Positions 17,864-19,045 of a stretch of 20,350 bases of DNA are shown here, in pieces. This stretch comes from Escherichia coli. GTDB lineage: Bacteria > Pseudomonadota > Gammaproteobacteria > Enterobacterales > Enterobacteriaceae. The first letter of the stretch is position 1. Every line of letters starts with the position of its first letter. The notes beneath the pieces were generated by a model that was not told the DNA's origin, ran no database searches, and saw nothing but the letters and a program-made list of their open reading frames with translations. The translations under genes were made by a program, and so were the position numbers. The stretch lies in assembly GCF_003334335.1 (NCBI RefSeq), contig NZ_QOWQ01000052.1; one strand, written 5' to 3'.

Positions 17864-18354
17864 TTACTCTGCACAAGCATCAGGCAATCCAGCTCCAATA
17901 TTTGTTATAAAATAATGCGTAACATTAATTTCACCAACAAAAAAAAGGTTTACACCATCCCCTTGCCCTGGTATCTTACCATATTTACACCACACTTTTT
18001 TTGTATCTGGATCATTCTTTGATACGATTTTCGCCACTTGTTCCCTGGCCCTCACTGTCAATGTTTTCTTAAACCTACCCCCATCATCATTTGTTAGGGA
18101 AAAATAAGAAAAAAATAATCATCTTCTACATTTGTGTATATTGATATATCCACCGCTACGTGCGGAAAAAAATCTGGGAGCCATGTAAAAACTCCATCAT
18201 TTTCTGGTATTGCCATATAGTTTATGTAATGTTTACTTACAAGAGATTCATCTTTGTATAAATAAAGATAAGTAATTACGCATAAAACAACAATGATTAT
18301 AATAGCAAAAATAAATATTATCATCTTTGATAGATTACTTGAGATAGCCAGCAT
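17864..18354 (-). pseudogene. membrane immunity-like gene split by a frameshift in a T7 tract
   Basis: ORF 18094-18354 (86 aa, one hydrophobic helix IIFIFAIIIIVVLCVITYLYLY) starts just after or overlapping the ylbH stop. A second ORF (17864-18061) is open upstream to 18118 in another frame, and the two overlap at a run of seven A (18109-18115, T7 on the coding strand). I think this is the locus annotated ybbD in K-12, but am not certain. Confidence 0.45.
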
Positions 18355-19045
18355 CTTGTAAAGCCTTTATCGTTTTTTTATGCTCTGGATTAATATAATC
18401 ACTACATCTATCTGAGCAATCTGTTGTTGATGGACATGTCAACCCATGGTCATTTACAGCCAAGTCTTTTTTATTATCTTCAATCATTTCAGAATGGGAT
18501 AGCTTTACTTTTCTGCCGTACATACCGAACAGATTTAACCCGTAATCTCTAATCTCTTTTTCATAACCCAGCCCTTTCGCCGATCGGCTAACACCAGCGT
18601 CATTTAATTTAGACACTCGACAAAATGCCATACAATGGAAAAATTGATCAGTCCCACCTAAATTTAATCTCTTCATATCTTCATAAGTATCAGATAATAT
18701 ATCCCATGCTCTTTGATGGTTTAGTTGATCTTTTCTTCTTATTAGCGCTACATCTGCGGGACTTAACCCTAATGGATCAATACCATTCACCGGATTCAGC
18801 GGATACGCATACAGACTCCATCCCCCCTCCAGCCCTATCGGGTCCTGAGTGATATACCGCCCCTGCAACGGATCGTAGTACCGGTTCCGGTTGTAGTACA
18901 GCCCCGACTCCTTATCATACTGCTGCCCCGGCAGCCGGTACGGCTGGTGCAGGTGATGCGGGTTCTCTTCATTCAGCTGGTTGCCCCACTCATCATACTC
19001 CCCGCTCCACGCAATGTTTCCATCCGCATCCATCAGCGCCAGCAT
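18335..19045 (-). pseudogene. ylbH: orphan Rhs C-terminal toxin fragment (short core remnant plus variable CT domain)
   Basis: The first ~94 codons (…[15 protein letters not shown]…[16 protein letters not shown]…DPLGL) are homologous to the end of the Rhs core seen in rhsD at ~19960-20242, followed by a distinct ~142-aa Cys-containing C-terminal domain. No SD is visible and the ATG overlaps the ybbC stop (TAATG), so there is no N-terminal Rhs body. Confidence 0.75.
18764..19045. repeat. Rhs core-end direct repeat, copy A (in ylbH)
   Basis: About 230-280 bp aligning to 19960-20242 at roughly 85% identity by eye, e.g. GGGTCCTGAGTGATATACCGCCCCTGCAACGGATCGTAGTACCGG in both copies. Boundaries are approximate. 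Confidence 0.7.

Follow-up and report, generated by a model that had tools for sequence, protein, structure and literature searches.

A displaced Rhs toxin cassette of Escherichia coli whose tip is assigned to the serum amyloid A family

The Escherichia coli gene ylbH and its neighbor ybbD lie behind rhsD in the 20,350-nucleotide stretch of contig NZ_QOWQ01000052.1 (assembly GCF_003334335.1) that we analyzed, hereafter the window. Family-profile and predicted-fold comparisons place the C-terminal domain of YlbH, the toxin tip of an orphan rhs C-terminal (rhs-CT) gene, in the prok-SAA family of the Lipocone superfamily and establish its homology to animal serum amyloid A (SAA). We think it likely that the two genes constitute a silent, displaced Rhs toxin/immunity cassette, whose prok-SAA tip would act in the periplasm and would be deployable only after recombination. 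A previous reading of this DNA from its letters, the sequence-only reading, had already recognized an orphan Rhs tip here, and the core-end fragment, the C-terminal domain, and their placement after rhsD and ybbC all bear this out. To that picture we add three points: the SAA homology, the broken state of the predicted immunity gene ybbD, and a ylbH start codon that is probably an artifact of a cassette junction.

Serum amyloid A homology of the ylbH tip

The ylbH open reading frame (ORF; 18335..19045, 236 codons plus stop), which like the other genes discussed here is on the reverse strand, is made up of two parts. Residues 1-94 (18764..19045) are the vestigial end of an Rhs core, and residues 95-236 (18338..18763) are the toxin tip, predicted to be a prok-SAA/Lipocone helical bundle. 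Residues 2-94 correspond to positions 1169-1261 of the 1261-position NCBIfam model RHS_core (NF041261; E=2e-50), residues 17-94 score 85 bits with TIGR03696 (cut-off 32.5), and the remnant closes at the PxxxxDPxGL boundary motif. These matches make the count of 94 core-end codons exact, in full agreement with the earlier estimate of about 94 codons of core followed by a distinct C-terminal domain, and their strength rules out a chance ORF. What ylbH lacks is the N-terminal and repeat part needed for delivery: the protein has 236 residues, compared with 1400 in a full-length carrier of the same tip.

Scanned against Pfam, the whole ORF matches SAA (PF00277) with E=1.3e-3 and the tip alone with E=3.6e-4. 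A word-index protein search with the tip returned close enterobacterial relatives only, and an exhaustive search over 1.84 billion cluster representatives found 92 relatives of the tip among them. The domain sits nearly always at the extreme C-terminus of these proteins, with DPxGL or YD repeats ahead of it in many, a placement that identifies the relatives as Rhs/YD toxin tips or fragments of such tips. An alignment of 46 relatives, which we call A2, was used as a profile. Compared with all PDB sequences, this profile matches the SAA entries 7zh7 (E=6.7e-16), 4ip8 and 4ip9 (both 1.1e-12), and 4q5g (2.3e-12). Scanned singly, 33 of the 46 members match Pfam SAA at E<=0.001, the best of them at 2e-26. 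A weak Pfam match to Peptidase_C7 (E=0.02-0.06) was also considered and set aside; it is seen in just 2 of the 46 relatives, even at E<=0.1.

Structure prediction of the 142-residue C-terminal domain, which the sequence-only reading had named as a check, gives an SAA-like helical bundle. The AlphaFold2 model made from the A2 alignment has a mean predicted local distance difference test score (pLDDT) of 95 and a predicted template modeling score (pTM) of 0.87. In tip numbering (add 94 for ORF numbering), the predicted helices span residues 2-33, 39-51, 56-78, 90-108, 116-123, and 129-137, of which H1-H4 form a core that is followed by a short fifth helix, H5, at 116-123. The top seven Foldseek matches of this model in the PDB are all SAA1 or SAA3, with probabilities of 0.99-1.00 and target-normalized template modeling (TM) scores of 0.67-0.74, and no other PDB match exceeds a probability of 0.11. 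The earlier toxin assignment, which hinged on homology of this domain to some toxin family, holds: by these comparisons the tip belongs to prok-SAA, a family of toxin tips.

The Lipocone superfamily, the SAA-Wnt (SAW) clade, and the prok-SAA family were defined by Burroughs, Nicastro & Aravind (eLife 2025; PMC12419801). [quoted passage not shown] Their Prok-SAA file holds HAU8267270.1 and WP_074823867.1, close enterobacterial relatives of the tip with ...DQFFHCSAFCRVSK..., so that the family assignment is already published. The names ylbH and ybbD are absent from the paper and its supplements, and a literature search for E. coli ylbH returned list entries only, with most matches to 'ylbH' referring to an unrelated Bacillus gene.

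The active site proposed for prok-SAA consists of a His in helix 2, a Glu and an acidic residue near the end of helix 3, and an Asp, a polar residue, and a Gly in helix 4 (PMC12419801). At these positions the tip has His137 in helix 2, Glu164 and Asp167 in helix 3, and Asp194 and Asn198 in helix 4 (ORF numbering). We counted conservation in 97 distinct domains aligned to A2. D39, H43, E70, D100, and N104 (ORF D133, H137, E164, D194, and N198) are present in every one of the 97, G107 in 95, D73 (ORF Asp167) in 93, and D96 in 79. The spacing is i,i+4 on helix 2, i,i+3 on helix 3, and i,i+4,i+8 on helix 4, and it places the conserved residues on one shared face of each helix.

The same 97 domains inform the role of the cysteines, several of which the sequence-only reading had remarked upon and taken to suggest an extracytoplasmic, disulfide-stabilized toxin. 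The 142 tip residues contain five, at ORF positions 138, 142, 204, 210, and 214, the first two of them within FFHCMAFC. C44, C48, and C116 (ORF C138, C142, and C210) are each found in 96 of the 97 relatives and C120 (ORF C214) in 94, two of its three exceptions being alignment gaps; the fifth, C110 (ORF C204), is found in just 65. The conserved four are arranged as one CxxxC on helix 2 (C44, C48) and another on helix 5 (C116, C120). One relative, P0092, has lost C44 and C120 together. In a by-eye alignment of the published family file, sequences of the MBE7707964.1 type lack C44 and C120 and keep C48 and C116, and those of the MCC6598473.1 type lack C48 and C116 and keep C44 and C120. Such paired losses support a C44-C120 and C48-C116 pairing, and this is the pattern expected of two disulfides (ORF C138-C214 and C142-C210) that would staple helix 5 antiparallel to helix 2. 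A zinc site appears less likely, given CxxxC on two helices instead of CxxC knuckles, the pair-specific losses, and a membrane-anchored immunity protein. The near-invariant paired cysteines, the membrane helix of YbbD described below, and the published prediction for the family thus lend indirect support to an extracytoplasmic, disulfide-stabilized toxin.

Immunity gene, natural fusions, and neighboring genes

The gene that follows the tip, ybbD (17864..18354), is its predicted cognate immunity gene and, in the window, a frameshifted pseudogene. In other strains, intact ybbD has 163 codons, is annotated as 'YbbD family protein', and has its first 20 nt within the 3' end of the tip ORF. Intact or not, ybbD adjoins the tip in all 13 loci that we sampled, four of which (L001, L005, L010, and L011) carry intact 163-residue alleles. 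In the window, one T has been lost from a run of eight: the homopolymer at 18109..18115 is A7 on the forward strand, hence T7 on the ybbD coding strand, one base short of the T8 alleles. The loss leaves an 86-residue N-terminal piece that includes the membrane helix (18094..18354) and a 65-residue ORF in another frame that holds the C-terminal piece (17864..18061), and NCBIfam NF011298 matches both halves. The N-terminal helix is very hydrophobic (Kyte-Doolittle maximum 3.37, residues 12-30), and YbbD is, as read from its sequence, the membrane-anchored, predicted cognate immunity protein of the tip.

YbbD differs from the published description of the Imm-SAA immunity proteins, which have one alpha-helix, four beta-strands, and four absolutely conserved cysteines. 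Outside its membrane helix YbbD has only C123 and C161, and C123 is the sole invariant cysteine in the alignment. With two cysteines as opposed to four, YbbD is not placed in Imm-SAA, with which it has membrane anchoring alone in common. An AlphaFold2 model of YbbD from an eight-sequence alignment has a pLDDT of 51 and a pTM of 0.29, with confidence confined to the membrane helix; a Pfam scan gave nothing significant in the library used, and the precomputed label PF26610 could not be named. The N-terminal fragment (18094-18354) weakly matches NF007301 (PRK09781, 181-residue hypothetical proteins; E=6e-9), a possible sign that membrane-anchored Rhs immunity proteins form a wider family.

The core remnant of ylbH also belongs to a 282-nt direct repeat: it is the downstream copy, and the core-end segment of rhsD (19960..20241), where the core ends in IDPMGL, is the upstream one. 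Identity between the two copies (18764..19045 and 19960..20241) is 79.4% overall and rises to 87.8% over the central 180 nt; no perfect run is longer than 34 nt. Among the 5426 complete E. coli genomes of our survey set, the tip and ybbD are present in 2863, about half. The orphan arrangement of the K-12 type accounts for 1767 genomes, and about 970 have another arrangement (the 2738 genomes with near-complete coverage of tip and ybbD, minus the 1767). Of eight inspected loci with another arrangement, seven have the tip on a full-length Rhs, either complete or decayed.

Our inspected sequences, the 13 loci and the window, include natural fusions of the tip to a complete, full-length Rhs protein of about 1400 residues, located between ybbP and mnmH in strain 4621, O157:H7 MB41-1 (L003), 23CRST032, and 2013C-4081. 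The domain annotation of a full-length carrier consists of DUF6531 and RHS repeats only, its match to the PAAR motif being non-significant (E=0.12). At the sites that distinguish the two repeat copies, the full-length fusions (L001, L003, L011, and L012) have main-type (rhsD) sequence on the 5' side and orphan-type sequence on the 3' side, as homologous recombination between main and orphan genes predicts. The switch points vary by strain: 2013C-4081 has a near-clean single switch, O157:H7 has one slightly earlier, and 4621 and 23CRST032 are mosaic. Such differing switch points inside the 282-nt repeat suggest several independent crossovers in the history of E. coli. Recombination onto a full rhs gene, which the sequence-only reading had offered as one way in which the tip might be expressed, is the route that these same-locus fusions with strain-specific switch points support, as judged from genome comparison.

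Carriers differ in the state of both tip and immunity gene. The orphan tip is accompanied by a broken ybbD in the window and in K-12 and by an intact one in UC4224; the full-length Rhs is accompanied by an intact ybbD in strain 4621 and 23CRST032 and by a truncated one in O157:H7 and 2013C-4081. L003 (1734-3910) has a full-length Rhs whose intact tip carries a single substitution, K130E, followed by a truncated, 86-residue YbbD, and L004 and L012 show this combination of full-length Rhs, intact tip, and truncated YbbD as well. Four genomes of the enterotoxigenic E. coli (ETEC) type (L005-L008, ETEC and related strains) have an Rhs core that is frameshifted just upstream of the tip, with ybbD intact in some and broken in others. 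The frameshift in these loci represents, as far as their sequences tell, a second, independent way of orphaning the tip. It leaves a 151-residue ORF (WP_001013164.1) that consists of the last core residues and the tip. With an exact 81-nt probe, whose counts cover carriers of near-identical alleles, the T7 version of ybbD was found in 1413 genomes and the T8 version in 529; the variation could reflect slippage-prone on/off switching or simple decay. The tip frame is intact in 14 of 14 inspected sequences, and no invariant or near-invariant residue is substituted in any of them. Between two alleles, the ratio of non-synonymous to synonymous substitution rates (dN/dS) is 0.45-0.49 for the tip (6 synonymous and 11-12 non-synonymous changes) and 0.30 for ybbD, an underpowered comparison with fewer than 20 substitutions in each.

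The window represents the rhsD locus of E. coli K-12 type in reverse orientation. Positions 17300..20350 are identical at 100% to many complete genomes, in which the annotation order is mnmH, ylbG, two ybbD fragments, an RHS-core pseudogene, ybbC, and rhsD; the Prokaryotic Genome Annotation Pipeline (PGAP) labels the ylbH equivalent 'RHS repeat-associated core domain-containing protein, pseudogene, missing N-terminus'. The gene ybbC (19045..19413, 122 residues) is the immunity gene of the RhsD tip, and its product matches Pfam Imm-NTF2-2 (PF15631, NTF2 fold) at E=6.8e-26. The N-terminus of YbbC is signal-like and ends in LFAC, and such an N-terminus on an NTF2-fold immunity protein suggests that the RhsD tip may also act outside the cytoplasm. 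That tip, the current primary tip of the locus, occupies 19453..19959 together with its stop codon and is labeled DUF4329 in another record. The rhsD ORF was listed as 19453..20325 with a GTG start; its frame is actually open to the window edge at 20350, so rhsD is cut by the end of the window. Between mnmH and ybbD, at 16942-17720, lie a truncated helix-turn-helix (transposase-like) gene, ylbG, and a short truncated hypothetical gene, remnants that are probably the decayed end of the Rhs element.

Proposed mechanism and competing explanations

We propose that the cassette comprises the 94-codon core remnant, the 142-residue tip, and ybbD, parked downstream of the rhsD tip and ybbC, and that it would be essentially silent in this genome. 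Recombination between the core-end repeats would delete rhsD-CT and ybbC and join the tip to a full-length Rhs protein. In K-12, such a recombinant would be left without immunity unless its T7 run returned to T8. Once delivered, the tip would act in the periplasm of the target cell, at the outer face of the inner membrane, held by its two disulfides. There it would most likely cleave or exchange a phosphate-linked lipid head group, for example that of lipid II or another undecaprenyl-phosphate-linked intermediate, in the manner of TelC, the lipid II phosphatase of the Streptococcus intermedius type VII secretion system (T7SS). TelC is the only biochemically characterized Lipocone toxin and has extracytoplasmic activity only (PMC12419801). 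Membrane-anchored YbbD would block the tip at this site. Without an export signal, any product of re-initiation after ybbC would be confined to the reducing cytoplasm and should be harmless there, which would account for the tolerated frameshift in the immunity gene. We infer from the membrane-anchored immunity protein, the disulfide pattern, and the extracytoplasmic activity of TelC that the tip most likely acts at the periplasmic face of the inner membrane. The enzymatic step is an extrapolation from the superfamily, for which lipid head-group phosphoesterase or transferase activity is predicted from PTDSS1/2 and TelC only (PMC12419801); the present data support this step only through the invariance of the residues proposed as catalytic.

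Several observations weigh against this proposal. Taken as a single sequence, the tip matches Pfam SAA weakly (E of about 1e-3), and the case is carried by the family profile together with the predicted fold. The sNxxGR motif of the SAW clade is kept in part: the tip has VNDHGL at this place, with the Asn conserved in 97 of 97 relatives and the Gly in 95, and lacks the Arg, at whose position no residue reaches a majority in the A2 alignment. No activity has so far been shown for any prok-SAA domain, and BteO, a Bacteroides fragilis GA3 T6SS effector and the nearest solved structural analogue (9UU0), is reported to be non-enzymatic (PMC12541434). The locus has no linked PAAR, VgrG, or T6SS gene. 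With 79% identity between the repeats and a longest perfect run of 34 nt, compared with 95% over 522 bp in Salmonella, recombination should be rare in a K-12 background, and it may be that the full-length fusions came first and that the rhsD-CT/ybbC cassette displaced the tip afterwards. Finally, O157:H7 combines an intact tip on a full-length Rhs with a truncated YbbD, which suits a delivered toxin that requires immunity poorly and suggests that in those strains the toxin is not delivered between siblings.

As one alternative, the cassette could simply be decaying and serve no function now or later, which we consider unlikely. The PGAP pseudogene call on ylbH points in this direction, as do the frameshift of ybbD in the window and in about half of the carriers, the Rhs core frameshifts that adjoin the tip in L005-L008, and the lack of linked secretion genes. 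Decay is harder to reconcile with a tip frame that is intact in all 14 inspected sequences, with conserved residues free of substitution, or with the occurrence in strain 4621 and 23CRST032 of an intact tip and an intact YbbD on a full-length Rhs. The dN/dS values below 1 for the tip and ybbD also argue against it, with the weak support that fewer than 20 substitutions in each can give.

A second alternative accepts the orphan cassette and changes the activity: the tip would be a non-enzymatic binder that inactivates an OmpA-family or other envelope protein in the periplasm, as has been reported for BteO. BteO is reported to be toxic in the periplasm only, to bind the C-terminal domains of OmpA, and to show no peptidoglycan hydrolase or amidase activity (PMC12541434); human SAA, for its part, has been reported to bind E. 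coli OmpA (quoted in PMC12419801). We nevertheless regard this explanation as improbable. All 97 relatives have D39, H43, E70, D100, and N104, which occupy one face each of helix 2, helix 3, and helix 4, a pattern that resembles a catalytic pocket and not a fast-evolving binding surface. The assays described in the accessible part of the BteO report are for glycoside hydrolase and amidase activity, and an assay on lipid head groups was not found there (PMC12541434). Moreover, our 9uu0_B match is tentatively placed in BteO instead of its maltose-binding protein (MBP) fusion partner on the ground that no other MBP chains appear among the matches.

The ylbH start codon and its surroundings bear on whether the tip could be made without recombination. 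The gene ybbC ends ...AGT AAA TAA, and the A at 19045 both closes this TAA and opens the ylbH ATG (19045..19043), giving TAATG. The one-base overlap and the lack of a Shine-Dalgarno sequence, both described in the sequence-only reading, are confirmed at this position. An AGGAG-like element was not found in the 30 nt before the ylbH ATG (ATGTGTTTTGAATTTCCTACATAGTAAATAATG), in contrast to ybbC, which has AAGGAG 7 nt before its own ATG. Homology between the orphan and the full-length Rhs genes starts exactly at the G of the ylbH ATG, the junction reading CTG CCG CTG GCG CT in the full-length genes and (TA)A ATG CTG GCG CT in the orphan, so that the start codon appears to combine AT from the end of the rhsD-CT/ybbC cassette with the G that opens the core remnant. 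The TAATG overlap is therefore probably a by-product of the cassette junction and not an evolved coupling signal. Translational coupling to ybbC, the other route to expression named in the sequence-only reading, is nonetheless possible. A consensus scan for promoters and terminators across 17700..19600 gave 10 promoter-like sites, with 7.2 ± 2.3 expected from shuffles, an uninformative result without enrichment, and genomic SELEX (systematic evolution of ligands by exponential enrichment) lists a constitutive RpoD promoter in the interval between ylbH and ybbD (PMC3946193). Neither a signal peptide nor a membrane segment is present in YlbH, whose Kyte-Doolittle maximum is 0.63.

It is very improbable that ylbH is translated alone, by TAATG re-initiation or from an internal promoter and start within the core remnant, as an intracellular, toxin-antitoxin-like growth regulator of the kind known for the Salmonella orphan: the stop/start overlap is real, internal promoters and non-ATG starts yield low-level intracellular Rhs-CT (Starsta et al. 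2020, PMC7043789), a P2 promoter is stated to precede E. coli Rhs tips too (PMC7043789), and the SELEX promoter (PMC3946193) is placed in the right interval, but the ATG without a Shine-Dalgarno sequence arises from the junction itself, promoter-like sites are not enriched, the toxin family, the immunity proteins, and TelC indicate action outside the cytoplasm for a protein that lacks export features of its own, and the ybbD frameshift is apparently tolerated in at least 1413 genomes.

Relation to known systems and implications

Comparison with characterized systems helps to delimit what is particular to the ylbH cassette. With the published prok-SAA family the tip has in common the helical core with a short fifth helix, the His, the Glu with an acidic residue, and the Asp...Asn..Gly arrangement, the position at an Rhs C-terminus, and a downstream gene for a membrane-anchored, here predicted, immunity protein. 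It departs from that family in that the Arg of sNxxGR is a Leu, in the extra C-terminal helix of the enterobacterial subgroup (tip residues 129-137), and in a partner that does not fit Imm-SAA with its four absolutely conserved cysteines. The resemblance to animal SAA1 and SAA3 (4ip8, 4q5g, and 6pxz; PF00277) extends to both fold and sequence (TM 0.67-0.74, profile E=1e-12 to 7e-16), and the motifs GxDKYFH, (A)RE, and DxxANxxG are common to the tip and SAA. Animal SAA, however, is a secreted, stand-alone host protein without the four cysteines, the C-terminal extension, the Rhs carrier, or the immunity partner.

The closest parallel for the arrangement of the genes is the orphan rhs-CT/rhsI of Salmonella Typhimurium, for which activation by homologous recombination between the main and orphan genes has been shown experimentally (Koskiniemi et al. 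2014, PMC3967940). There, too, a core-end fragment, a tip, and an immunity gene lie downstream of a main rhs/rhsI pair, and signals for export and normal initiation are absent. The two cases differ in the repeat, which is 522 bp at 95% identity in Salmonella and 282 nt at 79% here, in the frameshifted immunity gene of the window, and in the toxin family; whereas the Salmonella tips arrest growth from the cytoplasm, the ylbH tip is predicted to be periplasmic. TelC is placed in the Lipocone superfamily (PMC12419801), as the tip is here, and the immunity protein that counters it resides in the membrane or periplasm. It belongs to the ClaspCone-CapCone-TelC clade and to another secretion system, and a direct sequence or fold match between TelC and the tip was not obtained. 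BteO is 16% identical to the tip with no match at the sequence level and, as its report describes it (PMC12541434), has an N-terminal membrane helix of its own, is not an Rhs tip, and is an OmpA binder said to be non-enzymatic.

Since orphan Rhs cassettes and the prok-SAA family have both been published, these results do not introduce a new principle. They do link two genes, ylbH, long annotated as a K-12 pseudogene, and its neighbor ybbD, with the bacterial ancestry of serum amyloid A, and they identify the residues to mutate. E. coli carries the pair in every state, orphan or full-length and with immunity intact or broken, which makes it a convenient system in which to study the function of the SAA fold as well as the swapping in and loss of spare tips. 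Tentatively, and with clearly less confidence than we have in the displaced cassette itself, we suggest that ylbH/ybbD could serve as a tractable model for SAA-fold function, with the tip as a periplasmic lipid-head-group enzyme or OmpA binder and YbbD as a new Lipocone immunity family. Were this to hold, YbbD would represent an immunity family distinct from the published Imm-SAA and BamE-like types, the tip would provide the first experimental activity for any SAA-family domain, and a direct hypothesis would follow for how human acute-phase SAA acts on bacteria.

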